64,000 nucleotides of DNA from a virus (taxonomy: Duplodnaviria; Caudoviricetes): positions 7,070 to 71,069 of IMG/VR virus record IMGVR_UViG_3300046539_000030. One strand, written 5' to 3'. Below, piece by piece: positions 3,000 to 58,819 of this stretch. Under the pieces are notes generated by a model that saw nothing but the letters and a program-made list of their open reading frames with translations, did no database searches and had not been told where the DNA came from. The translations under genes were made by a program, and so were the position numbers. Each line of letters begins with the position of its first letter. Position 1 is the first letter of the stretch.

Positions 3000-3670
3000 A
3001 AGATTGGACAGCCCAGCAATTAAACGCGAAGCTGCCCGCCTTTAAGACCTTCCTGACCGCTCGCGGCGGGGAGGTTTTAGAACCCACAAGTGAATGGGAG
3101 GTTGTGCGGTTCAGAAGCGGCAGCAACACTTCCATTATTTACACGAACAAGAAGGGAATATTGAATTTTTATGGCGAAGATGCGAAAGCTGCCTTAGACG
3201 CCTACCGAACCAACGGTAGCTGGCGTGCCAATCTGCATGTCTTTAAGAACCGAACAAAGAATTCCTCGGTTGTATGCCGAACATTGCGCAAGCGTGACGG
3301 CAATAACTGTTTCTTTTGCCTCAAAGGTGTGAAGGCTGAAGAAGAGTCTGAAGAACACCTGTTGTCGCGCACGCACGGCGGAAGCGATCATATCGCTAAC
3401 AAAGTCCTGGCGCATAAAGCATGCAATTTGAACGCTAATCATTTGAGCGTAGCAGAAAAAATTCGTATTCATGTAGAAGCCCAACTAAAGAAAGCAAGGA
3501 CTGACTATGAAAACTCCCTTAAGTTCCGCGAATCCTTGCGCCAACAGCGAGGAATCGGAGAACATACTGATAGCGAAAGCACTAGCGATAGTGGGCCAGC
3601 GGTTACACAAGCCCGGGGCTTATTTGACTTGCCCGAATCTACTGGAGGAATACCTGATTCTAAAAATTAA
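2996..3670 (+). CDS. HNH endonuclease
   Basis: CFFC..EEHLLSRTHGGSDHIANKVLAHKACN HNH/Zn motif. Confidence 0.8.
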   Translation: MKDWTAQQLNAKLPAFKTFLTARGGEVLEPTSEWEVVRFRSGSNTSIIYTNKKGILNFYGEDAKAALDAYRTNGSWRANLHVFKNRTKNSSVVCRTLRKRDGNNCFFCLKGVKAEEESEEHLLSRTHGGSDHIANKVLAHKACNLNANHLSVAEKIRIHVEAQLKKARTDYENSLKFRESLRQQRGIGEHTDSESTSDSGPAVTQARGLFDLPESTGGIPDSKN

Positions 3671-3992
3671 TAACCGCGAGCATGAAGTTTTCGGGGTTAT
3701 CTGGCTCGACATGCGACATGGCGTTATTTATGATAGCGAACTATTCCGCGGTACGCTGAATTCTACCAGTGTGTATCCGCGTGAAGTGGTGAAGGAAGCT
3801 CTGTTTGCTAATGCGGCGGCGGTGATCTTTTACCACAACCATCCGAGCGGCGTGGTCGAGCCTAGCCCGGCAGACAAGACCTTGACAACCAAGCTGAAGC
3901 AGGCTTTGGATCTGGTTGACGTCAAGGTTGTTGACCATATAATTACTGCCGGCAATGCAACGTATTCTTTCTCGAAGAATGGACTGCTATGA
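3507..3992 (+). CDS. radC: RadC-like JAB/MPN domain protein
   Basis: EVFGVIWLD, GTLNSTSVYPREVVKEAL, HNHPSG..EPSPAD, DHII motifs. Confidence 0.9.
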   Translation: MKTPLSSANPCANSEESENILIAKALAIVGQRLHKPGAYLTCPNLLEEYLILKINNREHEVFGVIWLDMRHGVIYDSELFRGTLNSTSVYPREVVKEALFANAAAVIFYHNHPSGVVEPSPADKTLTTKLKQALDLVDVKVVDHIITAGNATYSFSKNGLL

Positions 3993-5862: not shown

Positions 5863-5898
5863 GCCCCCGTTGTGATGTTTTAACGGGGGCATTATAAT
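5863..5898 (+). promoter_or_regulatory. sigma70-like promoter TTGTGA-N17-TATAAT within a 9-bp inverted repeat
   Basis: -35 at 5870-5875, -10 at 5893-5898; GCCCCCGTT (5863-5871)/AACGGGGGC (5882-5890). Confidence 0.6.
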
Positions 5899-5938: not shown

Positions 5939-6172
5939 ATGGATGACACGAATCCGGCGCAATCCGAGTTCGATAAAAAATATATCACAGCATGGGAAGT
6001 GATGCGTACCGTGGGTGTCACCCGCGCTGCATTGCTCTATGCTCGGCGCACTCATAAACTCCCCGACCCTATTACCCTCAACGACGGAACTTTATTTATC
6101 TGGTTGCGCGAAGATGTGCAGCCGTACCTTGACGCTTGGAAGATTGTTCTCGATACGCGCCGGGGTCACTGA
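5939..6172 (+). CDS. AlpA/excisionase-like HTH DNA-binding protein
   Basis: YITAWEVMRTVGVTRAALLY...LPDPI...IWLREDV pattern; start uncertain (5927 or 5939). Confidence 0.6.
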   Translation: MDDTNPAQSEFDKKYITAWEVMRTVGVTRAALLYARRTHKLPDPITLNDGTLFIWLREDVQPYLDAWKIVLDTRRGH

Positions 6173-8643
6173 TGGCAATTAATTATGATCGCATCCCAGA
6201 AGAATTGCGCTGGGATAGAAGTTGGTGCATCGCAGGTAAAGATGAAAACACAGGTCGGTATCGCGCACCATACGGATACGGGCGCAGAGGACTGTTTCAC
6301 GTTAGTCCGGTCAAACCGGAACAATGGTCAGATTTTGAAAGCATTGTAGAAATTGCTGCGGCTAATCCTCCATGCGGGATAGGTTACGTTTTAGCTGACA
6401 CAGACGCTTATTCCGTTATTGATCTGGATATTAAGGACGCAACTACTGAACCTGACCACACTAAATGGACATCTCAGGAGCAGATCGACCGCTACCATCG
6501 TATTATCACAGCGTTTGACACTTACACCGAGCGCAGCGCCAGCGGTCTGGGCTTCCATATCTGGGTGCGCGGCAAAATTGGTGACGGCCTTAAGCGCGAT
6601 GGCGTAGAAATCTATTCGCGTGAGCGGTTCATTGTCTGTACGGGTAACGTGTTCCTGGACAAACCTATTGAGGCGCGTCAAGACCTGCTAAATCTGCTTG
6701 CTGCGGAAATTAGCCAGGCTTCCCCTGCTTCACATGGTGCGTTTGAGCTCGTAGAGATCGAACCTACCGAATCTGACACCGCTATCTTCAGGCGTGCAGC
6801 AACCGCAGATAACGCGGAAAAGTTTATCGATCTATGTGACGGCAATTGGTCGGGCAAATATCCTTCGCAGTCAGAAGCTGACCTAGCATTGATGTCAATC
6901 TTTACTTTCTACAGCCCGTCGAACGAACAGTGCCGTCGCATGTTCCGCCTAACTGAGCTAGGTAAGCGGGCAAAAGCAACTAAGAACGATGTCGCTCTAA
7001 ACCGCATACTGACGGTTATTCGCGCAAGGCAAGCTAATGCAGAACTGGTCGACGCTGCTGCGGCTGCTGCTGCCAGTATGCTAGTTGCTAGCTTAAATGC
7101 ACCCCTAGCACCGCAGGCAAGCGCCCCCAGCACGCAAGCGCAAGCAAGCGCACCCTATACCATACCCGCACAAATAAACCCCCCAAAACCGCTGCAAACA
7201 AGCGTCCAATTCGAGCGCATCCCTCTGCCCGAGGAACTGGAAGGTTATGTACCGCCACCTCTGCCAGAAACAGAGACGCGTGAGATAATGCAGAAGACAG
7301 CTAGCATTGATTGGCCGCCAGGTATCTTGGGCCGGGTTGCGCGGTTCATTTACCACAACTCGCCGCGCCCTGTTCAAGAGGTGTCGATTGTCTCCGCGTT
7401 GGGCTTCGCTGCCGGAGTGTGTGGTAAAGCTTACTGCCTCCCGCAAAGTGGCTTGAACTTGTATGTCGTTTTGATTGCTAGGTCTGCAATCGGTAAAGAG
7501 GCAATGCATAGCGGTATATCCACAATTGTGAAACAAGTGGCTGACACTTGCTCACGTGTGACGCAGTTCATAGATTTTACGGACTATGCTTCGGGGCCAG
7601 CTCTGCTGAAAGCGGTCACTGCGAACCCAAGCTTCGTGAACGTATCTGGTGAGTGGGGGCGTAAGCTGCGCAGGTTATCAATGGAAGACGGACGTGACGG
7701 GCCTATGCAACAGTTGCGCACGGTGATGACTAATATGTACCAGAAATCCGGGCCGTCCTCGATTGTTGGTGGTCTTGGTTACAGCGATAAGGAAAAGAAC
7801 GTTGGGAGCGTGTCTGGCGCAGCGTACAGCATGATTGGCGAAAGTACGCCTGGCGGGTTTTATGATTCGCTTACCGACACCATGATGGAAGACGGGTTCC
7901 TTAGCCGCTTCACCATTATTGAATACACGGGCGAACGTCCAACAGCTAACCCAAACATTGTAGATACGCTTGATGAAGATTTAAAGGCGCATTTGGCAGC
8001 ACTGGCGGAAGCTGCTTTAAAGACGACATTAGGTTCCCCTGTATATGTCACGCAGAACCCCGAAGCTGAGGCGCTTCTGCAAGCTTTCGATCTGGAATGT
8101 GATACCAATATTCGTGCCGCAGGTGAAGATGAAAGCACCAGGCAGATGTGGAACCGTGCTCATTTAAAAGCGAGCCGCATCGCGGCACTGTTGGCTTCGT
8201 GTGACGACTTTGAAATACCAATCATTAACAAGGGGCATGCCGAGTGGGCTATTGCGGTTATCCGCAAGGACATTGCAATTATGCAACGGCGCATTTCTTC
8301 TGGTGATGTCGGTATTGGTGACAGCCCCCGCGAGAAGAAGATTCTTGCAACCCTCCAGTTATACTTGTCCAAGCCTGTACCTGAAAGCTATGGTGTTCCT
8401 GACAAGATGCGGGTAGATGGCATCGTGCCTCGTAAATATCTGCAAATCGTTACAAACAAAGCGACCGCATTCACCCAACACAAACTCGGTTCCAATGCTG
8501 CTCTGGATCTCACCATGAAGTCTCTGGCAGATAGCGGATATGTTTCAGAAGTGCCTAGAGATAAGATGGTTAGCGGCTACAGCTTCCATGGGAAGGCGTA
8601 TCGCATTATCAATCTCCCTCGCTTCCCTGGAGGTACAAAATAA
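6172..8643 (+). CDS. primase-polymerase (AEP) with C-terminal DUF3987-like ATPase/helicase region
   Basis: IPEEL..W, DLD, ERSASGLGFHIW, EIYSRERFIVCTG (PrimPol); SQSEADLAL helical domain; ARSAIGKE P-loop-like; DGFLSRF. Confidence 0.8.
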   Translation: MAINYDRIPEELRWDRSWCIAGKDENTGRYRAPYGYGRRGLFHVSPVKPEQWSDFESIVEIAAANPPCGIGYVLADTDAYSVIDLDIKDATTEPDHTKWTSQEQIDRYHRIITAFDTYTERSASGLGFHIWVRGKIGDGLKRDGVEIYSRERFIVCTGNVFLDKPIEARQDLLNLLAAEISQASPASHGAFELVEIEPTESDTAIFRRAATADNAEKFIDLCDGNWSGKYPSQSEADLALMSIFTFYSPSNEQCRRMFRLTELGKRAKATKNDVALNRILTVIRARQANAELVDAAAAAAASMLVASLNAPLAPQASAPSTQAQASAPYTIPAQINPPKPLQTSVQFERIPLPEELEGYVPPPLPETETREIMQKTASIDWPPGILGRVARFIYHNSPRPVQEVSIVSALGFAAGVCGKAYCLPQSGLNLYVVLIARSAIGKEAMHSGISTIVKQVADTCSRVTQFIDFTDYASGPALLKAVTANPSFVNVSGEWGRKLRRLSMEDGRDGPMQQLRTVMTNMYQKSGPSSIVGGLGYSDKEKNVGSVSGAAYSMIGESTPGGFYDSLTDTMMEDGFLSRFTIIEYTGERPTANPNIVDTLDEDLKAHLAALAEAALKTTLGSPVYVTQNPEAEALLQAFDLECDTNIRAAGEDESTRQMWNRAHLKASRIAALLASCDDFEIPIINKGHAEWAIAVIRKDIAIMQRRISSGDVGIGDSPREKKILATLQLYLSKPVPESYGVPDKMRVDGIVPRKYLQIVTNKATAFTQHKLGSNAALDLTMKSLADSGYVSEVPRDKMVSGYSFHGKAYRIINLPRFPGGTK
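7052..7205. other. GA/TC-free island B (inside primase CDS)
   Basis: 154 nt with no GA or TC; encodes the Ala/Pro/Gln inter-domain linker. Confidence 0.9.
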
Positions 8644-15765: not shown

Positions 15766-17523
15766 ATGGCGCTCATTCCACGCGACTATCAAAACGGCGC
15801 GGTTGATAGTCTATTCCATTTTTTCAAAACGCACCCCGACCCAATCGACAATCCTGTTGTCGCTCTACCTACAGGTACGGGCAAAGCACTTGTCATTGCT
15901 GAATTCCTGCGACGTGCTTTTGCAATGTATTCAAAGCAGAAGGTTCTCGTAGCAACCCACGTTAAAGAGCTCATCGACCAGAATTATGAGGAGTTTCTGG
16001 AGCAGTGGCCGCAAGCCCCCGCCGGCGTCTATAGCGCCGGGCTTAACCGTAAAGATACCCTGAACAGGATTATCTTTTGCGGTATTGCGTCTATCGTTAA
16101 AAATCTGCAAGAGTTTGGTAAAGTCGACATATTGATGATCGACGAATGCCACTTGTTAAGCCAAGACGATGAGTCGATGTACTTGCGCGTCATCGCTTTG
16201 CTAAAAGCAATCAACCCTCGTTTGAGGGTAGTTGGTTTGACTGCAACGCCTTGGAGAGCTGGGCAAGGTAAGATCACCGACGACGGTATCTTTACACATA
16301 TCTGTTATGATGGCACAGGTATGAAAGCTTTCAACTGGTTCATCAAGCAGGGCTATCTGGTTCCAGTAGTCCCGAAGCGTACAGAAACATTCCTGGACGT
16401 TAGTGGTGTGCATCTGCGCGGCGGTGAGTTTGTCGAGAAAGAACTGCAACTCGCTGTCAATAAAGACGAGATCACTTATGCAGCTCTAAAGGAAACACTT
16501 GGACAAGCGCATGACCGCAAGCACTGGTTGATCTTTGGTGCCGGTGTTGCTCACGTTGTCAGAATTACAGAAATGTTAAACGCGATGGGTGTTTCTGCTC
16601 GTTGCGTCCATAGCAATACCAAAGATTATAAAATGACAGCCAAACAGCGCGATGAAAACATTGCAGACTGGAAGGCTGGCAAGTTCGTTGCAATGGTAAA
16701 TAACGGCATCTTGACAACAGGCGTGAACTTCAAAGCTATTGACCTGATTGTTATGTTGCGCCCAACACACTCAACCGTGCTGTGGATTCAGATGCTGGGT
16801 CGTGGGACGCGTCCGCTGTATGCACCAGGCTACGACATAACCACACTCAAGGGTCGTCTCGACGCAATCTTCAACAGCGCGAAACAGAACTGCTTAGTTT
16901 TAGACTTTGCCGGCAACTCCAAGCGGCTTGGACCTATCAACGATCCGGTTATACCTCGCAAAAAGGGTGAAAAGACTGGCGAAGTGCCGATCAAGATTTG
17001 TGAAGGTTGCGGTACATACAACCATATCAGCGCCAGGCATTGTGGCGGGGAACCTTTCCGCACGAATGAGGGCTGCGGCATGGAATTCCAGTTTAAAGTC
17101 TTGCTGAAGCAGTTCGCAGCTACGGATGAGCTTATCAAGACCGACGAACCCATTATCGAAACATTCACGGTAAAGCAAATCACCTTCCAGCAACATCAAA
17201 AAGTGGGCAAGCCTCCGAGCGTTCTTGTCACGTATTGGTGCGGCTTGCATCGGTATAGGGAGTTTATCTGTTTCGAACATGGCGGTCAACCAGAGCGTAA
17301 AGCTCGGTCGTGGTGGAAAGATCGCACAGACCTACCTTTCCCACCATCTACAGCCGTAGCATTGGAGCTCGCTGACAAACTGAGAGTCCCTAACACGATT
17401 CGCGTTTGGTTGAACAAACCCTACCCCGAAGTCTTGCTGCATGATTTCAGTGAGCCCTCCACTGCAACAGTGAACGTAAAGAAGCCCGAAATGCTATCGA
17501 TGGATTCTGACATTCCTTTTTAA
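15766..17523 (+). CDS. SF2 (DEAD/ResIII-like) DNA helicase with Zn finger
   Basis: PTGTGKA, IDECH, GLTATP, QMLGRGTR, CEGC; acidic tail SDIPF. Confidence 0.9.
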   Translation: MALIPRDYQNGAVDSLFHFFKTHPDPIDNPVVALPTGTGKALVIAEFLRRAFAMYSKQKVLVATHVKELIDQNYEEFLEQWPQAPAGVYSAGLNRKDTLNRIIFCGIASIVKNLQEFGKVDILMIDECHLLSQDDESMYLRVIALLKAINPRLRVVGLTATPWRAGQGKITDDGIFTHICYDGTGMKAFNWFIKQGYLVPVVPKRTETFLDVSGVHLRGGEFVEKELQLAVNKDEITYAALKETLGQAHDRKHWLIFGAGVAHVVRITEMLNAMGVSARCVHSNTKDYKMTAKQRDENIADWKAGKFVAMVNNGILTTGVNFKAIDLIVMLRPTHSTVLWIQMLGRGTRPLYAPGYDITTLKGRLDAIFNSAKQNCLVLDFAGNSKRLGPINDPVIPRKKGEKTGEVPIKICEGCGTYNHISARHCGGEPFRTNEGCGMEFQFKVLLKQFAATDELIKTDEPIIETFTVKQITFQQHQKVGKPPSVLVTYWCGLHRYREFICFEHGGQPERKARSWWKDRTDLPFPPSTAVALELADKLRVPNTIRVWLNKPYPEVLLHDFSEPSTATVNVKKPEMLSMDSDIPF

Positions 17524-17587: not shown

Positions 17588-18301
17588 TTGCTGGTATTGA
17601 TTGACAGATCCGCTATGTGCGTCCGTTACAAGCATCAGAAGGCTAAATGCTTAACCGACCTCATGCACATCGAAATGTCCCACGTTGCGGCATCCGTGGT
17701 AGAGCTACATCATCCAATGGTGTTCGACACCTTCACCGACCTGGAGCTTCGGCTGCTGTATCAGAACTTGTGTGGTCAAAAGTTCACAGGGTACAGCCGC
17801 GACATACTTTTATCCAATGTGTTCAAGCTTTGCACAGAGCTACCCAATTCCAATTTAAACGGACTTGAGCTAACTGTTCAGTCAGGTAAGATTGGTGAGG
17901 AAGATGATGGTTTCTATCGCTACCAGTTTGGCAGCATCTACCCTGCTGCGCTGGAAGAACCGTTTAACGGGCAACCCCTTACAGCGGCGCCGGGGTATGC
18001 ACCCTTACACACCCCCCTGCAAGCGGTAAAAACAGCACCAGCACCCGCACCGCAAGCGGCAAGCACACCCGCAAACGCACCGCGCCCCCGTAGCGCAGCA
18101 CCAGCAACAGGTGAGCCGCCCAAGACCGGAAGTAAGACAGGCCGGGTCTGGGAAATTGCCGACAAGGTCTGGACAGATAATGGTAGCCCCTCCAATATCA
18201 AACCATTGCGTGGCGCAATCGTTAGCGCATGTGAGGCTGAAGGAATCAATGGATCCACTGCGAGCGTCCAATACTCTAAGTGGCTTAAAACTAAAGGTTA
18301 A
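17588..18301 (+). CDS. hypothetical protein with C-terminal helical domain shared with 18423..18992
   Basis: GRVWEIAD...GINGSTASVQYSKW vs GKVWALAD...GLNDATTRTQYARW. Confidence 0.75.
   Translation: MLVLIDRSAMCVRYKHQKAKCLTDLMHIEMSHVAASVVELHHPMVFDTFTDLELRLLYQNLCGQKFTGYSRDILLSNVFKLCTELPNSNLNGLELTVQSGKIGEEDDGFYRYQFGSIYPAALEEPFNGQPLTAAPGYAPLHTPLQAVKTAPAPAPQAASTPANAPRPRSAAPATGEPPKTGSKTGRVWEIADKVWTDNGSPSNIKPLRGAIVSACEAEGINGSTASVQYSKWLKTKG
17958..18113. other. GA/TC-free island C (inside CDS 17588..18301)
   Basis: 156 nt with no GA or TC; encodes an Ala/Pro linker; two GCAAGCGG copies. Confidence 0.9.
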
Positions 18302-18422: not shown

Positions 18423-18992
18423 ATGTCCGAAAACCAAGCACAATCCGCCGACCAAGCCGCTCAAGCTGCTGCCCAAGCCAAAGCTGACAAAGACGCTGCT
18501 GCTCAAGCCAAGCAAGCCAAAGCTGACGCAAAAGCTGTTGCTGACAAGGCAAAAGCTGAAGCTAAACTGATCGCCGACCAAGCCAAGGCTACTGCCAAAG
18601 CTGCCGCCGATGCTGCAAAAGCTGAAGCCAAAGCTCAGAAAGATGCTGCTGTCGCTGCTGCCAAGAAAGCCAAGGAAGAAGCTGCCGCTCTGAAAGCCGC
18701 TGAAAAAGCCAAGCAAGCTGAAACCAAGACCAAAACTGTCATGCCTAGCAACAACGGCGTCACCCGTCCACGTCCTGAAGGCGCTTGCGGCAAAGTGTGG
18801 GCCCTGGCCGACCAACTGTCCAGCGAACTGGGCCAAGCTGTGCCGATCTCCAATCTGATCGTTGCCACTCAAGCTGCCGGCCTGAACGATGCGACTACTC
18901 GTACTCAGTACGCTCGCTGGAAGACTTACAACGGCGTGTTCGGCGTCGTTGCTAAGGTTGCCGCTCCTGCTGCAACCCAGACCGCAGCGTAA
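18423..18992 (+). CDS. histone-like Ala/Lys-rich protein with conserved C-terminal domain
   Basis: AKA/AAK repeats over ~100 aa; strong RBS; biased codon usage. Confidence 0.75.
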   Translation: MSENQAQSADQAAQAAAQAKADKDAAAQAKQAKADAKAVADKAKAEAKLIADQAKATAKAAADAAKAEAKAQKDAAVAAAKKAKEEAAALKAAEKAKQAETKTKTVMPSNNGVTRPRPEGACGKVWALADQLSSELGQAVPISNLIVATQAAGLNDATTRTQYARWKTYNGVFGVVAKVAAPAATQTAA

Positions 18993-19026: not shown

Positions 19027-19096
19027 GGAACCGTAGCTCAGCGGAAAGAGTAGCGAGGCATCGCGGACGCAGGTTCGAATCCTGTCGGTTCCACCA
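19027..19096 (+). ncRNA. tRNA-like RNA 2 (truncated anticodon arm, CCA end)
   Basis: GGAACCG/CGGTTCC, A73, CCA; D arm; T arm GCAGG-TTCGAAT-CCTGT; central arm only GCGA-GGCA-TCGC. Confidence 0.8.
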
Positions 19097-19224: not shown

Positions 19225-19926
19225 ATGTCAGTAATCAACATCCAACCTGTTGAGAAACAGGATCTCCTCGCACCAACGCTCTCCCTCCACAGTATCTTCT
19301 ACACAATCCAAGGTGAAGGCCCTTTTACAGGCCACCCTGCGATCTTTGTGCGCCTGGCAGGCTGTAACCTGCAATGTCCGGGATGCGACACCGATTACAC
19401 GTCAACCCGCGAGGCTATTACCGCAGGCCAACTGTTGTCAAAGATTTTGCTATTGTCTCAACAGACAGAATGCAAGTTTGTCGTACTGACAGGCGGTGAA
19501 CCGTTCCGTCAAAACATTGCGCCTATCGTTCGTATGATGGTCAGCTCGGGCCTCAAGGTGCAGATCGAAACCAACGGCACGTTGCATCAAGAAGATCTGC
19601 CGTGGGACTCTATCACCATCGTTTGCAGCCCAAAAGCTGGCAAGGTCAATGCAAAGCTTGCCCCGCACATTGATGCATACAAATATGTCCTGGCTTGGGA
19701 TAGCCTGGATGTAAGCGACGGTTTGCCTATCCTCGCGCTTGACCACACTGCTTCGCCCCGCGTAGCGCGTCCGCATTTCGGCTACAAAGGGCTTGTCTAT
19801 TTGCAGCCTATGGACTCGCAAGATAAGCTGACCAACGAGATGAACATGGACGCCTGTGTCGAATCTTGCATGGAACACGGCTACATCCTGCAACTTCAAA
19901 TTCACAAACTCATCGGGGTGGAATAA
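19225..19926 (+). CDS. queE: 7-carboxy-7-deazaguanine synthase (radical SAM)
   Basis: FYTIQGEG, FVRLAGCNLQCPGCDT CxxxCxxC, TGGEP, QIETNG, SPK, QIHK. Confidence 0.95.
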   Translation: MSVINIQPVEKQDLLAPTLSLHSIFYTIQGEGPFTGHPAIFVRLAGCNLQCPGCDTDYTSTREAITAGQLLSKILLLSQQTECKFVVLTGGEPFRQNIAPIVRMMVSSGLKVQIETNGTLHQEDLPWDSITIVCSPKAGKVNAKLAPHIDAYKYVLAWDSLDVSDGLPILALDHTASPRVARPHFGYKGLVYLQPMDSQDKLTNEMNMDACVESCMEHGYILQLQIHKLIGVE

Positions 19927-20126
19927 TGAACCTCGGCGGCTGGTCTGTAAGTTCTGCGGACGAGCGGGGTGAGTTCCATGTGGTCCCCGTCAACGACCTA
20001 GAAGAACACTTCGACGAAGGTTGCAAATGCTGTCCTGTTCGGGATGCAGTATGCGAAAACCTCTGGATGCATAATAGTTTCGACAAGCGTGAGCTTTACG
20101 AAACAGGCGAACTAAAACTATCTTAG
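19926..20126 (+). CDS. small His/Cys-rich hypothetical protein
   Basis: HVVPVNDLEEH...CKCCP...HNSFD. Confidence 0.65.
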   Translation: MNLGGWSVSSADERGEFHVVPVNDLEEHFDEGCKCCPVRDAVCENLWMHNSFDKRELYETGELKLS

Positions 20127-20134
20127 GAGTCACA

Positions 20135-21220
20135 ATGGCAAAAATAAATAACTGGAGCCTCGGCGGCCATCCAACGAGCCCGTATCAAGCACCTGAAACG
20201 AACCTGCGCTTGCATGGTGTGGTCACAGGACACCCCAACTTCCCAGACGGTTCAGAAGTCACAACCAGCCGCATCAAGGAAGTCCGGAACGGCAAGGTGT
20301 ACACTCATACCGGCAGCGAGTACGAGTTAGGCACCGTTGACCCGGAATATGAAAAGCTCTACCCGAATGCTCTACATCGTCTTTTATCCCGCGCTATACA
20401 AATCGAGTCTTCTATTGAAGGAGTCAAAATGAACAAAGGTAAAGCACTGGTCGTTCTTTCTGGTGGTCAAGACAGCACCACTTGTCTGGCATGGGCTATC
20501 AACGAAGGTTATGAAGTCCATACCATCAGTTTCGATTATGGTCAAAAACATGTCGTTGAACTGCATGCAGCTCTAGCAGTTGCACGTATCTTGGGCGTAC
20601 CCGCCTCCAGGCAGGAATTCGTCCCTCTGGGTGCTGGTATTTTGGCAGGCACATCCCCGCTGGTGAACAAAAATGCGGAGCTCGAACAATATGCAGATCA
20701 TCAATCCTTACCGGGCGGCTTGGAAAAGACTTTCGTTCCCATGCGCAATCAGTTGTTTCTCACTGTCGCTGCTAACCGTGCCTATGTTCTCGGTTGCAGT
20801 GTTCTTGTCACGGGCGTGTGCCAGGAGGATTTCGGAGGCTACCCCGATTGTCGCCGTGTCTTTATTGACGCACTCCAAGATGCCTGCAACTATGGTACGT
20901 TCACAGGCCAGGGTGACACCTTGCCCCCGCTGCGCATCCTTACTCCACTGATGAGCCTTACCAAGGCTGCTAGCGTGCATCTAGCAATGAAGTTGCCTGG
21001 TTGCATGTCTGCGCTGGCTTATAGCCACACTGCTTATGACGGCCAGTATCCGCCGCTCGGACACGACCATGCAACTTTGCTTCGCGCCAAAGGCTTCGAA
21101 GAAGCGGGCATCCCTGACCCATTGGTTCTGCGTGCTGTTGGTGAAGGATTAATGGCTTCGCCTAATACGCCGAATTACACCGCTGAATCTATTCTCCATT
21201 ATCTCAACAACAAAGCTTGA
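20135..21220 (+). CDS. queC: 7-cyano-7-deazaguanine synthase with 98 aa N-terminal extension
   Basis: SGGQDST, FDYGQKH, TFVPMRN, YPDCR, PLMSLTK; second in-frame RBS/ATG at 20429. Confidence 0.92.
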   Translation: MAKINNWSLGGHPTSPYQAPETNLRLHGVVTGHPNFPDGSEVTTSRIKEVRNGKVYTHTGSEYELGTVDPEYEKLYPNALHRLLSRAIQIESSIEGVKMNKGKALVVLSGGQDSTTCLAWAINEGYEVHTISFDYGQKHVVELHAALAVARILGVPASRQEFVPLGAGILAGTSPLVNKNAELEQYADHQSLPGGLEKTFVPMRNQLFLTVAANRAYVLGCSVLVTGVCQEDFGGYPDCRRVFIDALQDACNYGTFTGQGDTLPPLRILTPLMSLTKAASVHLAMKLPGCMSALAYSHTAYDGQYPPLGHDHATLLRAKGFEEAGIPDPLVLRAVGEGLMASPNTPNYTAESILHYLNNKA

Positions 21221-21246
21221 CCCATTAACTTGATTTAGGAATAAAA

Positions 21247-21954
21247 ATGAAAAAAGTTCTGTTCGCTTCAATTCTCGCACTAGCTTTTGCAAGTGCGTTC
21301 GCAACAAACAACGGGTCGAAAGACCATCACAATACGGTCAACAATACGACCAACAACACGTCGACCAAAAACGAGAACAGCAACGCCAATCTCAACAGCA
21401 ACAAGAACTCGAACAACAATCTCAACAGCAACACAAATCGCAACAGCGTGAACAACGAAAGCTCAATCACGAATAACAACCGTGTGTCGAACGAGCAGGC
21501 TCAGCGCCAACGTCAGCAACAGCACCAGACGCAACAGTCCACAAGCTCGAGCACCGGCGGCGAAGCATCAAACAGCAATAATGCAGCGATGAACGTCAGC
21601 ATGAGCAATTCGCGCCAGGTCGCTTCAGCTGCAAACGTCACCGTCTTGCCAACCGCTGTCTGTTCTGGCAGCACGGCAGCAGGGGCGCAGGGTGTAGCCT
21701 TCGGCGTCAGCTTTGGTACATCCTGGACTGACGAGAACTGTATGTTGCTGGAACAAGTGCGTACAGTTTCCGTCGTACTGGATGACAAGGCTACTGCAAA
21801 AGAAATGCTCTGTTCTTTGAAAGCATACCGCGAAGCGCGTCAGCGGACGGGCAAGCCTTGCTCGCATGTGACAACCACCCCGGCGCCCGTTTCGCAAGAA
21901 TCAACCGACCCGAACGTTCGTGCTGCAATGGGCCTCCCTCCACTGTCTAATTAA
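21247..21954 (+). CDS. secreted Asn/Ser-rich protein
   Basis: Signal peptide; N/S/T low-complexity stalk; C-terminal 3-Cys domain (C..G..FG.S.G..D.NC...LC). Confidence 0.7.
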   Translation: MKKVLFASILALAFASAFATNNGSKDHHNTVNNTTNNTSTKNENSNANLNSNKNSNNNLNSNTNRNSVNNESSITNNNRVSNEQAQRQRQQQHQTQQSTSSSTGGEASNSNNAAMNVSMSNSRQVASAANVTVLPTAVCSGSTAAGAQGVAFGVSFGTSWTDENCMLLEQVRTVSVVLDDKATAKEMLCSLKAYREARQRTGKPCSHVTTTPAPVSQESTDPNVRAAMGLPPLSN

Positions 21955-21962
21955 GGCGTAAC

Positions 21963-22418
21963 ATGCCGTTCTATTCAACAAAGACGTTCCCCCATAGCAT
22001 CGGGTTGAGCGCAGCATTCCGGCAGTGGCGCGCAGAAAGTCATTGCCGGTTGATTCACGGTTATGCACTGCAAATCAAGTTCACGTTTGGCACCAACGAC
22101 CTGGACGTGCGCAATTGGTGCGTTGACTTTGGCTCGATGAAAAGCCTCAAGACCTGGATGGAGGACACCTTTGACCACAAACTACTCGTGGCGGAGGACG
22201 ATCCGGAACTGCAAACGTTCATGATGCTGCAAGCAAAAGACCTAGCTGACATCGTGGTCGTCCCTGCAACCGGCTGCGAGAAGTTTGCGGAGCTCATCTT
22301 CGGTGCAACCGAAATCTGGTTGAAGGATAACGGCTATGCACCGCGCTGCTGGGTTGAATCCGTTGAAGTATCTGAGCACGGCGCCAACAGCGCAATCTTT
22401 TTAAGGGGAAGAGAATGA
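21963..22418 (+). CDS. queD: 6-carboxy-tetrahydropterin synthase
   Basis: HCRLIHGY, FDH, E..A, SEH motifs. Confidence 0.92.
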   Translation: MPFYSTKTFPHSIGLSAAFRQWRAESHCRLIHGYALQIKFTFGTNDLDVRNWCVDFGSMKSLKTWMEDTFDHKLLVAEDDPELQTFMMLQAKDLADIVVVPATGCEKFAELIFGATEIWLKDNGYAPRCWVESVEVSEHGANSAIFLRGRE

Positions 22419-23323
22419 CAACTAAAATCATTCTTACGCAAGACACCATCAGCCAACTGTCAATTGCTCTGGTCAGAGAAATTGAAAAGGCTTTTGAAAA
22501 TCGTAATCCAGGCAAAGCGGTTAAAATATACGGCATCCCTCGGGGCGGAATGCAAGCCGCTTATGCTGTGAGCCGATATTTGTTTTGCACAATTGTTGAT
22601 ACACCTGAACAAGCGGACGCTTTTGTTGATGATATCATTGACAGCGGCACAACAATGCGCGAGTATTGCGACAAGTATCCGGGCAAACCATTCTTCGCGC
22701 TTGTTGACAAAACCGATCCAGACTGTACCTACAAAAACGACTGGATCGTTTTCCCGTGGGAAGCTGGTGAAGGTACAGGCATCGAAGATAACGTGCGCCG
22801 CATGTTGCAGTTCGCAGGTGACAAGCCTGAGCGGGAAGGTTTGCTGGAAACGCCTGCTCGTGTGGCCAAAGCTTACGAACATTGGTTCAGCGGTTACAAA
22901 GTGGACATCGCTGGTTTATTGAAAGTCTTTGAAGATGGAGCAGCCGGCTATGACGAAATGGTTATCGTACGTGATATTCCTATTTATAGCAAGTGTGAAC
23001 ACCATGTTGCAGATATTTTCGGCACTGTGTCTATCGCTTATATTCCTAACGGGCGTATCGTTGGGCTTTCTAAGCTCTCTCGTGTCGCGGATGCTTTCGC
23101 ACGTCGCCTCCAAGTTCAGGAACGACTGACAGGCCAAATCGCGGACGCGCTGATGGAACATCTGCAACCCAAAGGCGTAGGCGTCATCATGCGTGCGCGG
23201 CATATGTGCATGGAATCACGGGGCCTGTGTCAACAAGGGCATCACACTATCACCTCTGCGCTGCGCGGTGTCATTAAAACCGACCCTGCGGCTCGAGCAG
23301 AATTTATCAACCTCACTATGTAA
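22415..23323 (+). CDS. folE: type I phosphoribosyltransferase - GTP cyclohydrolase I fusion
   Basis: N-terminal GIPRGG, VDDIIDSGTT, WIVFPWE; C-terminal REGLLETPARV, CEHH, GLSKL, RLQVQERL, HMC. Confidence 0.92.
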   Translation: MTTKIILTQDTISQLSIALVREIEKAFENRNPGKAVKIYGIPRGGMQAAYAVSRYLFCTIVDTPEQADAFVDDIIDSGTTMREYCDKYPGKPFFALVDKTDPDCTYKNDWIVFPWEAGEGTGIEDNVRRMLQFAGDKPEREGLLETPARVAKAYEHWFSGYKVDIAGLLKVFEDGAAGYDEMVIVRDIPIYSKCEHHVADIFGTVSIAYIPNGRIVGLSKLSRVADAFARRLQVQERLTGQIADALMEHLQPKGVGVIMRARHMCMESRGLCQQGHHTITSALRGVIKTDPAARAEFINLTM

Positions 23324-23328
23324 ATCAA

Positions 23329-23682
23329 ATGTCAAACTCTATCATGGAACCAACCAACGGACGCATCGTCTGGTACACCCCGGCAGTAGGCGACGGCCAA
23401 ATTGTATATCACGGCAAGCCACTGGCGGCAATCGTCTGCAACGTCTGGGGCGACCGCATGGTCAACCTTTCGGTGATTGACGCAAACGGCGTTCACCATG
23501 CTCGCACGTCGGTTGTGCTTCTGCAAGGCGATGATCCAAAGCCGTCTTACGGCAACTGCGCCGAATGGATGCCGTACCAAAAGGTTCAACACAACAAGTC
23601 TCTAGAGGCGTCAAAGCTGAAGGATCTGAAGGCTTTGGGTCAGCCCTTCCGCGAACCCTTCACAACAGATCCAACCGTTTAA
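23329..23682 (+). CDS. conserved hypothetical protein
   Basis: PTNGRIVWY..AAIVCNVW..VNLSVID. Confidence 0.7.
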   Translation: MSNSIMEPTNGRIVWYTPAVGDGQIVYHGKPLAAIVCNVWGDRMVNLSVIDANGVHHARTSVVLLQGDDPKPSYGNCAEWMPYQKVQHNKSLEASKLKDLKALGQPFREPFTTDPTV

Positions 23683-23808
23683 AACGCGCTGTAAGCTGTT
23701 AAAATTTGCGGGGGTTGCTAGGGTATAGCGCCCCCGTTTTAATTGCTTGCCGCGCTTGTATGCAAGCGGCATAAGGGGGTTTTATGCAATGCGGTAAATG
23801 CAAAAGCG
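23671..23808. other. GA/TC-free island D (upstream of dpdA)
   Basis: 138 nt with no GA or TC; ~30 nt similar to the reverse complement of island A; CGGGGG/CCCCCG hairpin. Confidence 0.9.
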
Positions 23809-23975
23809 AAATGCTTATACGTCAGGGGAAGTTTGGCCCTTTTTGGGCTTGCCCAAAGTCGTACAAAGGTAATGACCACGGGACAGTCAAAACTGATGGT
23901 CGTCTTGCAGAAAATATTTTTGACATAGAAGACGAAAAAGTCCTCGACCAGCTCTACGAACTTGACGGGTATTGA
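23784..23975 (+). CDS. small topoisomerase-type C4 zinc-finger protein
   Basis: CGKCKSEMLIRQGKFGPFWACP. Confidence 0.65.
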   Translation: MQCGKCKSEMLIRQGKFGPFWACPKSYKGNDHGTVKTDGRLAENIFDIEDEKVLDQLYELDGY

Positions 23976-24910
23976 CAATGTATCTGTTTCTCGCTGCTGT
24001 TTATACTAACTCGTACATGAAGACCCAGAACCGTTATGTCAAGTTGACAGACGTTGAGCAGGGTATCATGGACGCCGTGCCCAACATACTCGAATCATAC
24101 CACTATGTTAATTCTCAAAAATATGTTGACGTTATGCGTCAGCAAGGCGCAAAAGTATTCCTTGACTCTGGTGCTTTTTCTGCCCATAGCCTTGGTGTAT
24201 CTATTGATATTCGGGAGTATTGCAACTATATCATACGCAATCGTGATATACTACGGGTTGAAGATGGGAATGTTATGGCTTCTGTCCTTGACGGTATTGG
24301 CGACCCTCTAAAGACCTGGCAGAACCAGTTGTACATGGAGTCGCAAGGTGCGAAGCCCCTCCCCTGCTTTCACTTTGGCGAAGACCCGCGCTATCTCGAC
24401 TGGTACGTCGAGCGTTACGAATATATCACAATTGGTGGTCTGGTGGGACGTTCTGCCAAAGACCAAGAAATATGGCTAGATCGCATCTGGGAAAAGCACA
24501 TGCTGGACGGTAGTGGACGTGCGAAGCTCAAAGTACATGCATTCGGTATGACCGCACCATGGCTGATGAAGCGATATCCGTGGTACAGCGTTGACTCCTC
24601 TTCCTGGATTCAAGCTGCTGCGTTCGGTTCTATCTTTACAAGCGAGCATGGCCCATTGGCGGTCTCCGCACAGTCTCCCAGCAGGCACGACGCAGGCCGG
24701 CATTTGACCACACTAACCGACATCGAGCGAGAGTCCGTCGAGCGGATGCTTGCACAAAAAGGTTTTAATTTTGAGCGTCTTTCCACAGTGTACGAGTCCC
24801 GCGCATGTTATAATTGTTTAGGGTATGTAGAACTCAATGACCTGATAAACAAGCACCTGGATGAAGTCCAAGGTGTGTTAGACGTACAAAAAGCACAGCA
24901 ACTATTCTAG
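23972..24910 (+). CDS. dpdA: DNA 7-deazaguanine transglycosylase (TGT-like)
   Basis: FLDSGAFS, VLDGIG, PCFHFGE, IGGLVG, KVHAFG, PWYSVDSSSW; located in the que cluster. Confidence 0.88.
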   Translation: MTMYLFLAAVYTNSYMKTQNRYVKLTDVEQGIMDAVPNILESYHYVNSQKYVDVMRQQGAKVFLDSGAFSAHSLGVSIDIREYCNYIIRNRDILRVEDGNVMASVLDGIGDPLKTWQNQLYMESQGAKPLPCFHFGEDPRYLDWYVERYEYITIGGLVGRSAKDQEIWLDRIWEKHMLDGSGRAKLKVHAFGMTAPWLMKRYPWYSVDSSSWIQAAAFGSIFTSEHGPLAVSAQSPSRHDAGRHLTTLTDIERESVERMLAQKGFNFERLSTVYESRACYNCLGYVELNDLINKHLDEVQGVLDVQKAQQLF

Positions 24911-24915
24911 GAGTC

Positions 24916-26121
24916 ATGATGAAAGTAATAAACGACGAAGGTTCCCGCCCAATTAAGCTTTGGACGGATGACATCGAAGACGCTGCGCTCAAGCAGCTCA
25001 AGAATTTAGCACGCTTGCCGTTCATTGCCGGCAATGGTGTTGCCTGTATGCCGGACGTTCACGCGGGTATCGGTTCGACGGTCGGTACGGTCATTGCTAC
25101 GGAGAAGGCAATCATCCCTGCTGCCGTTGGTGTGGACATCGGTTGCGGTATGAACGCGGTTCGCTTGTCGCTTAAAGCTTCCGACCTGCCCGATTCGCTT
25201 TTGGTTATTCGCAATCAAATTGAGCGTGACGTGCCACTCGGTGCCGGTGGTCGACATCAGAATGACCTTGACGTTAGCTTAAAGTTCGCAAGACTTCCCC
25301 TGATGCAATATGCTGTACAGAAAACGCTCAGCGATGTTGCTGGTAGCTGGGAAAAGGCTGGAAAGAAAGCTGCTTGCCAGCTCGGCACGCTTGGTTCAGG
25401 CAACCATTTCATTGAACTGTGCATCGACGAGAACCAAGACGTGTGGGTTATGCTGCATTCTGGTTCGCGCGGTATTGGTAACATGATTGGCACCTACTTT
25501 ATCGAAAAAGCGAAGCGTCGCATGGAGCAGTATTTCATCACCTTGCCTGACGGTGACCTAGCGTACTTCCCGGAAAACACTGACGAGTTTAACGAGTATG
25601 TGGAAGCGGTCAGCTGGGCGCAGAACTACGCGCTGGAAAACCGCCGGTCGATGATGCAAGCTGTGCTATCTGCTTTGAGCCGGCATATTCCCGTTGAGTT
25701 TGCGGTCACCCATGAAGCTATCAACTGCCACCATAACTATGTTGAAAAAGAAAACCACTTCGGGCGCAATCTTTGGGTTACGCGAAAAGGCGCTATCCGC
25801 GCACGTGAGGGCGATCTGGGGATCATACCTGGATCAATGGGACAGCGTTCTTATATCGTACGTGGAAAAGGAAATGCAGAGTCGTATTGTTCATGCTCGC
25901 ATGGAGCTGGCCGGAAGATGTCACGATCGAAAGCGCGTAAAGTATTTACGATCGATGACCTTGCAAAGCAGACTGAAGGCGTGGAATGCCGCAAAGACGA
26001 CGCGGTCTTAGACGAGATCCCAGGCAGCTACAAGAACATCGACGAAGTCATGGCGAACCAGACCGACCTCGTTGAAGTTGTGCATATCCTGAAACAAGTG
26101 CTTTGCGTGAAGGGCGGTTAA
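24916..26121 (+). CDS. rtcB: RtcB RNA 3'-phosphate/5'-OH ligase
   Basis: MPDVHAG, VGVDIGCG, GTLGSGNHF, HSGSRG, HHNY, HGAGR, DEIPGSYK. Confidence 0.95.
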   Translation: MMKVINDEGSRPIKLWTDDIEDAALKQLKNLARLPFIAGNGVACMPDVHAGIGSTVGTVIATEKAIIPAAVGVDIGCGMNAVRLSLKASDLPDSLLVIRNQIERDVPLGAGGRHQNDLDVSLKFARLPLMQYAVQKTLSDVAGSWEKAGKKAACQLGTLGSGNHFIELCIDENQDVWVMLHSGSRGIGNMIGTYFIEKAKRRMEQYFITLPDGDLAYFPENTDEFNEYVEAVSWAQNYALENRRSMMQAVLSALSRHIPVEFAVTHEAINCHHNYVEKENHFGRNLWVTRKGAIRAREGDLGIIPGSMGQRSYIVRGKGNAESYCSCSHGAGRKMSRSKARKVFTIDDLAKQTEGVECRKDDAVLDEIPGSYKNIDEVMANQTDLVEVVHILKQVLCVKGG

Positions 26122-26774: not shown

Positions 26775-27733
26775 TGTTTAATGCACTTAAATTCTGCCAA
26801 GGTAGTGTGGCCAAAAAGGACTTCCTCCCGGCTCTTACGCACTTCGTAATTGAGCATGGACGCGTCCGCGGTTACAACGGGGTGATCGCATTGTGCAGCC
26901 CCATCCCCTTTGACATTGCTTGCAAGCCTCGGGCGGATAAGCTTATCAAAGCGATTGCAGCTTGCAAGGATACTGTTCAGCTTAGCTTGACGCCTACCGG
27001 CCGGCTAGCGGTTAAGAGCGGTAAGGCCAGGGTGTATGTGGACTGTGTTGAAGGTGACACCGCCCACGCAATGCCGGAGGGTGCATTCTTCCAGCTTAAT
27101 GGCGAAGCTCTGCTCGAGGGGTTAAAAGCAGTTGCGCCGTTCATAGGTGATGATGCTTCACGCCGCTGGGCCAATGGTGTGTTGGTGGAAAATCAAAGCG
27201 TCTTTGCGACCAATAATATCACACTGGTTCAGTATTGGGTGGGCTTTAACCTGCCTCGCTCGCTTGTGATACCTCGGGACGCTGTAAAGGAAATGCTCCG
27301 CATTGGTGAAGCACCAACCAGCGCACAGCTGGCGCAGAATAGCATCACCTTCCATTACGAGAACGATCGCTGGCTGCGCACTCAGCTTTATGATTCGGCA
27401 GCCTGGCCCAACCTGGCTAGCATTCTCGACACACCGTCAAGCCAGGGTGCAATTGAAGAGACTTGGAAAGAGGCCCTGGAAACAATCAAGCCCTTTGTCG
27501 ATAAGCTCGGTCGGGTCTTGTTTCAGCAGCAACGGATCGCTACACATGACAGCGACAGTGAAGGTGCGCAGTTTGACATGCCTGAGCTGATTGGTGTGGA
27601 TGGTATTTACAACATTGACATGTTGGAGCTTATCATCGGGGTTGCTAAAACAATTGACTGGAGCACATACCCCAGACCGTGCCTCTTCCAAGGTGGCAAA
27701 TTGCGCGGAGCCATTATCGGGATGCGCCCATGA
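26774..27733 (+). CDS. DNA polymerase III beta-clamp-like protein
   Basis: KKDFLPALTHF, ATNNITL, IPRDAV, C-terminal GAIIGMR; 319 aa; upstream of the polymerase. Confidence 0.7.
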   Translation: MFNALKFCQGSVAKKDFLPALTHFVIEHGRVRGYNGVIALCSPIPFDIACKPRADKLIKAIAACKDTVQLSLTPTGRLAVKSGKARVYVDCVEGDTAHAMPEGAFFQLNGEALLEGLKAVAPFIGDDASRRWANGVLVENQSVFATNNITLVQYWVGFNLPRSLVIPRDAVKEMLRIGEAPTSAQLAQNSITFHYENDRWLRTQLYDSAAWPNLASILDTPSSQGAIEETWKEALETIKPFVDKLGRVLFQQQRIATHDSDSEGAQFDMPELIGVDGIYNIDMLELIIGVAKTIDWSTYPRPCLFQGGKLRGAIIGMRP

Positions 27734-27906
27734 CGAACGATATAGTTAATCAGATTAATTCTTTGCTGCTTTATGATAAGCCTATCCCCGAAGCTTGGAA
27801 GGCTACGCTCAAGGAAGACGCAGACTCAAAATGTACCTCTTGTGATGGGTACGGCATTTTCTACGGAAATGTCTGTGTTTGCCATTGCGTTGAGGTTGAA
27901 GAATGA
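27730..27906 (+). CDS. small hypothetical protein
   Basis: CTSCDG...CVCHC; ATGA coupling. Confidence 0.5.
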   Translation: MTNDIVNQINSLLLYDKPIPEAWKATLKEDADSKCTSCDGYGIFYGNVCVCHCVEVEE

Positions 27907-30123: not shown

Positions 30124-30740
30124 CCACACTATATGAAGTGCTAGGCGTCAACCACGATGCTACCGAAAGCGAAATCAAACGAGCTTACCGCAGCCTTGCG
30201 CAAAGGAATCATCCTGACAAGGGTGGTTCGCGCGAAGCTTTCCAAGCAATTCAAAAGGCGTACGATATTCTTAGCGACCCGGAGAAGCGTGCCCGCTATG
30301 ATGACACCGGGGAAGAGCCTAGCCAGGCTCCCCGCTTGCGGGACATTGCAATCCATGAACTTGCCAGTTTGCTTGCGCAGACAATGGCACGGTCGGACGT
30401 GGTCTATACAGATCTTGTGCTCACCATGATAAAGCAACTTGGCCAGCAAGTCCAGCAAACAGAGTCAAACCGCAAGGTTGCTCTAGCTGCCATTGCAAAG
30501 AACAATGAAGCAATCAAACGCATCGTTGCAAAAGGTGACGGCAACATCCTTGCAGCCCTGCTAGGCACAGCCAACGAAGCTGCCAACAATCAACTTAAAG
30601 AGTTGGATAACTTGCTCATGGTGTTGGCGGAGATGAAAAAGGTACTCGACGACTACGAGTATAAGATTGACGCGCGACCCTCGATGACAAGCGGAAGCAC
30701 CATCTTTGGAACTACTACTGGGACTTATTACACCCCTTAA
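30120..30740 (+). CDS. J-domain (DnaJ-like) protein
   Basis: LYEVLGV..EIKRAYR...[21 protein letters not shown]. Confidence 0.9.
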
Positions 30741-30871
30741 TTAAAGCGCCGGCAAGCGGTTTAAGGGGTGCGGGTAGGGTTGCATACAGGGTGCGGCAAA
30801 CCAACAGCGCCGCACCCCTTTGCCGTGCTTGCTAGCTTACTTTGCTGGCGGGGTAGTAGCTTTAAAAAGGT
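30723..30871. other. GA/TC-free island E at the convergence of + and - gene blocks
   Basis: 149 nt with no GA or TC; 11 bp inverted repeat AAGGGGTGCGG/CCGCACCCCTT. Confidence 0.9.
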
Positions 30872-45152: not shown

Positions 45153-45800
45153 TTAATTGAAGATTTCTGCCCTGTACGGAATCATCACGGCCATCGCAAA
45201 AGTTTCACTTTCCACGAGCCCAGGAAGGATTGCCGGCGTTTTGTCTATATTTACTACTACTCCACCATTACTGAACGAAGCTCCCCTCGGGAACGTTGAC
45301 CTAATCAACTCTGCTCGTGTAACAACGTCTACTGTGCCCATGTTGGTTGGATAATACAAGCTGACTTGCAAATACCCATGTTCACGATAATGACTCGTGC
45401 CCAATGTTGAATTAATGGGGGTTGCGTACAAGACGTTGACTTTTTGGTAGGGAACCCCGGCAACGGGTTCAAACGCAACCCCTTCCCACGCTATTAGCTT
45501 AGGGGTTAAAACCCCGCCTGTACCGCTTGCCGTGCTTGCTATGGGGGTTTTTGTTACCTTGTTTTGTAAGCTAAAAGTAGTATCTGTCAGCTTAACAAAA
45601 TAATACGTGCCATCAAGCAAAACTTCAGAGTGCCCGCTAATACCAACGGTCACACCTGACTCTAAAAGATGTGGGGTGGCTGTCTCGAAAACCGCAGCAG
45701 TCGAACTCGCAGTTGATGCAACAATAGTCACAGGCAACACAATGCCCGGCATGGCGGCAACCGCTTGTTCCAACGCTGCGCGAACTTTAATCAGCGACAC
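45153..45800 (-). CDS. tail terminator with inserted beta-domain
   Basis: RAALEQ...IAWEGVAFEP..PYQ..GYLQVSLYYP terminator pattern interrupted by ~75 aa. Confidence 0.7.
   Translation of the reverse strand: MSLIKVRAALEQAVAAMPGIVLPVTIVASTASSTAAVFETATPHLLESGVTVGISGHSEVLLDGTYYFVKLTDTTFSLQNKVTKTPIASTASGTGGVLTPKLIAWEGVAFEPVAGVPYQKVNVLYATPINSTLGTSHYREHGYLQVSLYYPTNMGTVDVVTRAELIRSTFPRGASFSNGGVVVNIDKTPAILPGLVESETFAMAVMIPYRAEIFN
45485..45583. other. GA/TC-free island F (inside the tail terminator CDS)
   Basis: 99 nt with no GA or TC; shares the exact 15-mer TTGCCGTGCTTGCTA with island E. Confidence 0.8.
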
Positions 45801-58691: not shown

Positions 58692-58819
58692 AGTAAAACA
58701 GGGGTAAAACGTACCGGGCAAAACACGGCAAGGGGTGTAGGCGCTGCGCTGCTGCTGGGGTAGGGTAAAGGGGTGCAACTATATAAAGCGCACCCCGTAA
58801 CGCGTTTAAGCGCGCCAGT
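58692..58819. other. GA/TC-free island G upstream of terS
   Basis: 128 nt with no GA or TC (152 nt from 58668 with one GA); G-runs; GGGGTGC/GCACCCC hairpin. Confidence 0.9.

Follow-up and report, generated by a model that had tools for sequence, protein, structure and literature searches.

A GA-free tract in the primase-helicase gene of a dpdA-carrying siphophage is probably a DNA-selected patch without targets for DpdA

The closest described systems are the DpdA systems of the phages iggy and CAjan. dPreQ0 occupies 97% of the GA sites of iggy, and GA accounts for 99.75% of its modified guanines (PMC10484667); the CAjan enzyme was found to modify both GA and GGC (PMC10484667, PMC7544227). Modification at GA and motif avoidance in phages are already known. 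Here, we analysed a 154-nt tract, termed island B, from which GA is absent on both strands (neither GA nor its complement TC, together written GA/TC, is present) and which lies within the primase-helicase gene of an uncultured phage (IMG/VR record IMGVR_UViG_3300046539_000030). The analysed stretch, termed the window, comprises 64,000 nt and corresponds to bases 7070-71069 of the 71,069-bp contig; positions are those of the window unless another genome is named. Island B is probably a DNA-selected, unmodifiable patch that is free of DpdA targets. The features on which this reading draws are as follows.

Primase-helicase gene, 6172-8643, + strand; longest open reading frame (ORF) from 6136; phrog_3022 'DNA primase' (E 1.6e-204); called product P0001, 823 amino acids
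Island B, 7052-7205, 154-nt tract in the primase-helicase linker, GA absent from both strands
dpdA (DNA guanine transglycosylase), 23972-24910, + strand; phrog_887 (E 5e-84); presumed reader of GA
7-Deazaguanine precursor genes, 19225-23323, + strand; QueE-like 19225-19926, QueC-like 20135-21220, FolE 22415-23323

Like iggy and CAjan, the phage combines dpdA with the preQ0 pathway genes FolE, QueE-like and QueC-like and belongs to the same phage group, and the step avoided in island B is the published target (PMC10484667, PMC7544227). The gene set of a DpdA modification system is present, with FolE assigned via Pfam (E 7.6e-69) and the QueE-like and QueC-like genes via PHROGs; the QueD candidate is probably the ORF at 21963-22418. 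Its DpdA shares 60% identity with that of iggy and 65% with those of CAjan and PaMx25. By analogy with iggy and CAjan, this enzyme presumably targets GA, and island B would really be unmodified. Iggy bears the same kind of tract, unlike CAjan, in which none was found.

As in restriction-site or short-motif avoidance, selection on a DNA word overrides synonymous codon choice in island B. Classical avoidance, however, is genome-wide and concerns the sites of host enzymes, whereas here the word is common (11% of steps) and removed only from bounded tracts of ~150 bp, the presumed reader being the phage's own enzyme. In literature searches, no sharply bounded, selected motif-free tracts in an otherwise modified phage genome, or ones running through an essential gene, were found, and the portions of the text of the iggy paper covered by a term search contain no mention of long motif-free tracts (PMC10484667).

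According to the preliminary description of this DNA, 154 nt of the primase ORF were without GA/TC, and a recount reproduced the coordinates exactly: the flanking steps are a GA at 7051, in a GAC codon, and a TC at 7205, in a GTC codon, and at none of the positions from 7052 to 7204 does a GA/TC begin. The tract (G+C = 59%) is in frame within the primase-helicase ORF and encodes the linker peptide quoted in that description, which, as stated there, lacks Asp and Glu and has its Ser residues encoded by AGY. This applies to six of six Ser codons (AGT once, AGC five times), compared with an AGY share of 38% genome-wide, and every acidic residue of the linker is located immediately outside island B. 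GA/TC accounts for 0.1145 of the dinucleotide steps of the genome. Across 300 genomes simulated with a first-order Markov model, the maximum GA/TC-free gap had a mean of 69 nt and was 124 nt or less in each, and runs of at least 99 nt, of which six were observed, occurred at 0.007 per Markov genome. Among nine other dinucleotide classes checked in the genome, oversized gaps comparable to those of GA/TC were not found.

For the 50-codon peptide written with the codon usage of the genome, the expectation in island B was 12.46 GA/TC, while none was observed (exact P = 1.5e-8). A synonymous codon shuffle inside the tract, in which local codon usage was kept, yielded a mean of 5.2 GA/TC at codon junctions versus none in island B (P = 4.5e-4). 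In view of these two values and of the AGY-only Ser codons, protein composition does not explain island B; the peptide is composed of 14 different amino acids, and all other dinucleotide classes occur. Analysis by strand, given the peptide, revealed an expectation of 9.7 for TC (probability of zero occurrences, P0 = 9e-7) and of 2.7 for GA (P0 = 0.03). The hard evidence in island B is the lack of GA on the template strand; on the coding strand, GA is avoided mainly in that the peptide has no Asp or Glu.

When all genes were scanned with correction for composition, island B proved to be the strongest outlier of the genome. Only two 40-codon windows combined zero observed with more than 7.5 expected GA/TC, namely the primase linker (11.5) and the gene after the helicase (8.7). 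For coding DNA overall, the ratio of observed to expected GA/TC was 0.96, intergenic GA/TC density was normal in most regions, and the ratio at codon junctions was mildly low (0.83-0.90), with similar values in phages lacking dpdA. Because all three measures are near normal, the avoidance is local and sharply bounded and not a genome-wide bias. Mutational decay of GA at low constraint was rejected, as GA/TC is close to its normal level in the bulk of the intergenic DNA and at codon junctions, with similar values in the dpdA-minus phages. The earlier proposal that DNA-level selection shapes the primase linker is supported, since GA/TC is avoided in the choice of codons and at their junctions to a far greater extent than the peptide demands.

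The dpdA-minus phages used for comparison were a small set of six with the same replication module, comprising the cultured phages SCUT-S3, Samson, Loki and Paracoccus R3 and the genomes G036 and G048. A tblastn search with the DpdA of the present phage gave no match in any of the four cultured ones. In SCUT-S3, Samson and Paracoccus R3, GA/TC-free runs of 114-180 nt were found in the Gln/Gly/Pro-rich tails of proteins resembling single-stranded DNA-binding protein (SSB) (positions 29620-29786 of L154, 30602-30782 of L155 and 6698-6920 of L157). Like the linker of island B, these Septimatrevirus and Paracoccus tails are disordered parts of replication proteins whose coding DNA is free of GA/TC over a long run. 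Unlike island B, their runs are expected from the peptide (P0 0.016-0.06; shuffle expectation 0.4-1.3), the P0 of island B being lower by about six orders of magnitude. Since composition-explained runs occur in these tails, a GA/TC-free run in a disordered tail is not evidence alone, and scoring such islands by length only is misleading.

These controls bear on the possibility that island B is a low-complexity by-product, generated by slippage and codon bias in a Pro/Ala/Gln-rich spacer and devoid of a DNA-level function. The composition-explained tails are in its favour, as are the internal repeats of island B, the hypervariability of the linker and at least one DUF669 tract of a dpdA+ genome (G011) that is not significant after composition correction. 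It is opposed by the roughly million-fold lower P0 of island B, by the local shuffle, by the use of 14 amino acids and all other dinucleotide classes and by the rank of island B in the genome, and it cannot account for the non-coding tracts of the same genome. The by-product explanation is largely refuted, and we leave it a quite small chance.

No intergenic GA/TC-free tract was present among the six dpdA-minus phages, nor was there a composition-corrected coding outlier in correct reading frames; 'outliers' from wrong-frame ORFs in GC-rich genomes were left out of the scan. By comparison, at least one tract was found in 13 of 17 other dpdA+ genomes assembled from fetched pieces (12 of the 16 tabulated ones, and iggy). 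Tracts of this kind are present in the cultured phages iggy, PaMx25 and MMDA13, and for iggy, nanopore reads for modification mapping are public (SRR22405777, native DNA; SRR22407576, amplified DNA). The genomes compared support an association in which tracts are present with dpdA and absent without it after composition correction. The link to dpdA is supported by this comparison, most dpdA+ relatives including iggy having tracts. Among 25 near-complete relatives, 24 carry dpdA. Across 80 loci around primase relatives, 22 strongly oversized gaps were counted for GA/TC and 0-7 for each of the other non-palindromic classes.

Iggy (MN029011.1) has four GA/TC-free tracts of 152-171 nt (27693-27854, 39299-39456, 42699-42870 and 60073-60225) and a fifth one of 108 nt (3178-3286). 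The four long tracts are located in the SSB-like gene, the gene after the helicase, a convergent junction and one intergenic region. Evidence on persistence was obtained from G017 and G025, whose eight homologous tracts differ by 102 substitutions in all. The copies in G025 contain just 5 GA/TC, usually fewer than would arise from equivalent substitutions placed at random (per-tract P 0.0009 to 0.17). This supports the view that diverging tracts of the relatives tend to stay GA-free. For island B itself, a relative closer than 60% protein identity was not found.

In the preliminary description, free occurrence of GA in the homologous linkers of dpdA+ relatives was named as the finding that would speak against selection. 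The primase linker turned out to be hypervariable, with Asp/Glu and GA in the linkers of most dpdA+ relatives, and conservation of position did not stand. Recurrence did, since about 6 of ~60 distinct relatives have runs of 92-116 nt in the same linker, including L018 (116 nt), L011 (105 nt), L085 (104 nt), L013 (95 nt) and L014 (92 nt); conditional on the protein, P ranges from 5e-5 to 6.5e-3. The primase linker is thus a recurrent, not a conserved, tract site. Coding tracts recur in three disordered linkers, namely the primase-helicase linker, the tail of the DUF669/SSB-like protein and the phrog_7864 gene after the helicase, the last of which bears an island in the present phage (island C) and, at this position, in the distant relatives G001, G017, G025, PaMx25 (gp43) and iggy (QEA09773). 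The relatives thus share the practice of locating tracts in linkers that tolerate them rather than this particular site.

Eight low-GA/TC tracts of about 100-190 nt were identified in the genome, six of them uninterrupted; one of the two interrupted tracts lies 4 kb upstream of the window (two interruptions), and the other is island A (one TC). Because island B is one of eight, the site in the primase gene is not special. The further tracts within the window are listed here.

Island A, 1317-1463, intergenic, interrupted by one TC; long imperfect hairpin, just 5' of the ORF at 1468
Island C, 17958-18113, 156 nt, within the gene after the helicase (17588-18301, phrog_7864); P = 1.1e-6
Island D, 23671-23808, 138 nt, intergenic, upstream of dpdA; terminator hairpin (z = -2.7), promoter-like site TTTAAA-16-TAAAAT, start of a 63-amino-acid ORF
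Island E, 30723-30871, 149 nt, at the convergence of + strand replication genes and - strand genes; long hairpin (z = -2.8)
Island F, 45485-45583, 99 nt, 5' of the conserved portion of the tail-terminator gene
Island G, 58692-58819, 128 nt, intergenic, upstream of the small-terminase gene, - strand

Judged from their positions, the islands show no regular spacing. The words GGGGTGC and GCAAGCGS are enriched within them, the latter with 22 copies in the window versus 10 expected and 9 of the 22 within islands; in our reading, the hairpins of several intergenic islands have stems made of GGGGTGC. Across the islands of 15 genomes, the only shared motifs were generic GC-rich words of the GCN type. 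Local similarity of island B to the other islands is weak (P 0.005-0.1), too weak for the islands to be copies of one repeat, and this option was rejected.

The placement of these tracts argues against a constraint at the RNA level, according to which the mRNA would avoid UC (and GA) for ribonuclease or translation reasons, apart from DNA modification. Such a constraint would fit the signal given the peptide, which is mainly coding-strand TC, and the C-rich, unstructured mRNA of island B. GA and TC are, however, both absent from intergenic tracts and from tracts in genes of either orientation, the avoided step is the exact DpdA target and the feature is missing from dpdA-minus relatives, which makes this explanation extremely improbable.

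Tract size and location bear on a docking site for a DNA-wrapping enzyme, such as gyrase or another topoisomerase, for which 7-deazaguanine in the major groove would perhaps be an obstacle. DNA-wrapping topoisomerases cover about 130-150 bp; a typical tract measures 140-160 nt, several tracts with flexible positions exist per genome, and a tract is found at the convergent junction, where positive supercoils accumulate, both in this phage (island E) and at the equivalent place in iggy. The basis of this idea is size and position only, a cleavage-site motif or helical periodicity was neither tested nor seen, and the length distribution is truncated by the detection threshold. Its chance is slender.

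Outside the islands, the early region contains a group of several near-consensus, sigma-70-like promoters whose -35 boxes have the GA-containing form TTGACN (2208-2273, 3706-3943 and 5863-5898). The sole promoter-like site within an island, that of island D, has TTTAAA as its -35 element and an extended -10 element. There may be two promoter classes with a different response to modification. This pattern, together with the hairpins of intergenic islands and the weak similarity of island B to other islands, is what suggests an internal transcription signal, that is, a promoter, an anti-termination site or a pause site that would act on the helicase half or on downstream genes and be shielded from modification. 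In island B itself, no sigma-70 -35/-10 pair at 16-18 nt spacing was found on either strand within 7052-7205, scans for promoters and terminators found none inside either coding island, and folding was no better than that of shuffles (z = -0.13 for the + strand, +1.33 for the - strand). A convincing internal start with a ribosome-binding site was not seen directly 3' of the tract, and no Rfam match was obtained in it. A transcription signal is, on these results, improbable.

Short repeats are present inside island B.

Octamer GCAAGCGC, three copies within 7117-7151, + strand, starting at 7117, 7134 and 7144; encodes the repeated peptide Q-A-S-A
10-mers CCCCTAGCAC and CCCCCAGCAC, 7102-7133, + strand; exact matches elsewhere in the window only in the island at 1317-1463, in the same order

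The 10-mers likewise encode repeated peptide. A replication origin was suggested in the preliminary description. Given its location in the linker of an initiator-type gene, island B could be the site, or one of two, at which the primase-helicase or another initiator is assembled, kept GA-free to serve both states of the DNA. The three copies of GCAAGCGC and the two copies of GCAAGCGG in island C would fit this, as would the relatives, which typically have two coding tracts in the replication module, and the fact that origins within initiator genes are established for lambdoid phages. The lambda ori combines an AT-rich region with four iterons, each about 19 bp long. It resembles island B as a DNA-level constraint in the tolerant flexible linker of an initiator gene; unlike the lambda ori, island B has neither such iterons nor an AT-rich region. 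Direct repeats of about 17-22 bp were not found in it, the 8-mer being the only repeat, and no AT-rich unwinding element was seen in island B or its flanks. GC/AT skew is weak and tracks gene orientation, without an inflection at the primase. Further points against an origin are that the 8-mers also encode repeated peptide, that the position is not conserved, with GA in the primase linkers of most relatives, that similar tracts occur in structural and lysis-proximal regions and that the motif shared across genomes is limited to generic words. An origin gains no positive support from these analyses and is unlikely, and a replication-related site in the broader sense (origin or helicase-loading) is only slightly less so.

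The N-terminal part of the primase is an archaeo-eukaryotic primase (AEP)-type primase-polymerase like that of phage NrS-1 (PDB matches 7OLA, 6A9W and 6K9A, residues 8-258), and the C-terminal half is a DUF3987 helicase (Pfam). NrS-1-type primases recognise GTG and TTTGGTTA (PMC8718748). Avoidance of the primase's own recognition word was rejected, as the NrS-1-type word is not GA and GTG is present in the islands.

For island B as a DNA-selected patch without DpdA targets, the following course of events is proposed. Selection on the DNA itself would have stripped all GA steps from both strands. In this phage family, DpdA exchanges the guanine of GA for a 7-deazaguanine; a GA-free tract gives it no target, and ~150 bp would remain ordinary DNA, whether in the injected genome with its full modification or in newly replicated copies that are still to be modified. 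The disordered linker of the primase-helicase is among the few coding places to tolerate the loss of Asp/Glu and the limits on codons. As to purpose, our committed guess is that island B acts in cis as the place where a DNA-binding machine from the replication/recombination module docks; the docked machine would have to read the major groove alike in any modification state. Island B would be the tract serving the replication module, and the tracts in general would be cis-acting sites presenting an unmodified major groove.

Several points weigh against this reading. Given the peptide, coding-strand GA is just marginally depleted (P = 0.03) and the signal is mostly TC. Island B is partly repetitive (Q-A-S-A; GCAAGCGC three times), its codons not being fully independent, and long GA/TC-free runs can come from composition alone, as in the Gln/Gly/Pro-rich tails of the dpdA-minus phages. 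GA modification in this phage is deduced from characterised DpdAs to which its own enzyme is just 60-65% identical, and were that enzyme active at GGC as is that of CAjan, island B would keep four GGC/GCC sites. A clear tract was not found in CAjan, whose DpdA targets GA, nor in G034, G035, G046 and G050, all of which carry dpdA; tracts are consequently not required for the dpdA lifestyle. Regarding purpose, island B is without a promoter-like site, structure, long iterons, an AT-rich element or a skew signal.

With respect to GGC, its share among the non-A continuations of GG was 13-21% in the islands versus 34-38% genome-wide in this genome, G001, G004 and G005, and G-runs in islands of the ~70-kb clade are followed by T rather than C. 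The depletion was not seen in the islands of iggy, PaMx25, G017 and G014. A weaker second DpdA target may exist in the ~70-kb clade, namely GGC, which the CAjan enzyme also modifies. In G005 (L108 region), ~800 nt at 65957-66747 contain a handful of GA/TC, a 395-nt gap included; inspected by eye, the region appears to span a small - strand ORF without Asp/Glu and, upstream of it, five TAGGCA-type repeats, which look like operators.

The phage is a Queuovirinae-like siphophage, its primase being 41-48% identical within this group; when the primase gene was compared with GenBank phages by megablast, no near relative was found. Replication and recombination genes are carried on the + strand and structural genes on the - strand. 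The + strand module comprises the primase-helicase, a ligase, a Sak4-like ATPase, a DUF669/SSB-like protein, a Cas4-like exonuclease, a helicase (15766-17523), a clamp and DNA polymerase, and is followed by the 7-deazaguanine cassette of QueE-like, QueC-like, FolE and DpdA genes. Between a K/A-rich ORF (18423-18992) and the QueE-like gene lies a tRNA match at 19027-19093 (49.8 bits), the sole Rfam match obtained, for which the preliminary description had flagged an abnormal anticodon arm. The FolE gene has an additional N-terminal segment with a weak phosphoribosyltransferase match. Directly 5' of dpdA, the 63-amino-acid ORF that starts in island D (23784-23975) has Cys pairs and an AAGGGGG ribosome-binding site and possibly encodes a small zinc-ribbon protein, and a gene for an RtcB-type RNA ligase (24916-26121) lies directly 3' of dpdA. 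In a - strand structural ORF of 1406 amino acids (47180-51400), numerous diverged direct repeats with a period of 63 nt or multiples thereof occur at 47395-50437, which suggests tandem units of 21 residues.

Beyond island B, it is possible, though we would sooner doubt than assert it, that GA-marking phages keep a small set of unmarkable 'clear windows' of ~150 bp for the docking of replication, topology or transcription machinery unable to read 7-deazaguanine, some of the windows running through disordered linkers encoded by essential replication genes. If this were true, the motif recognised by an uncharacterised DpdA could be deduced, with no more than the sequence, as the word that such windows lack, and the windows would point to the DNA transactions that are disturbed by 7-deazaguanine. 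A genome layer missed by annotation would emerge, consisting of modified bulk DNA and unmodifiable windows, and the phage's own DNA modification would limit how its genes are written. In the present phage, the linker of an essential enzyme would have given up Asp and Glu and accepted restricted codons, by which a patch of its gene would be kept unmarked.

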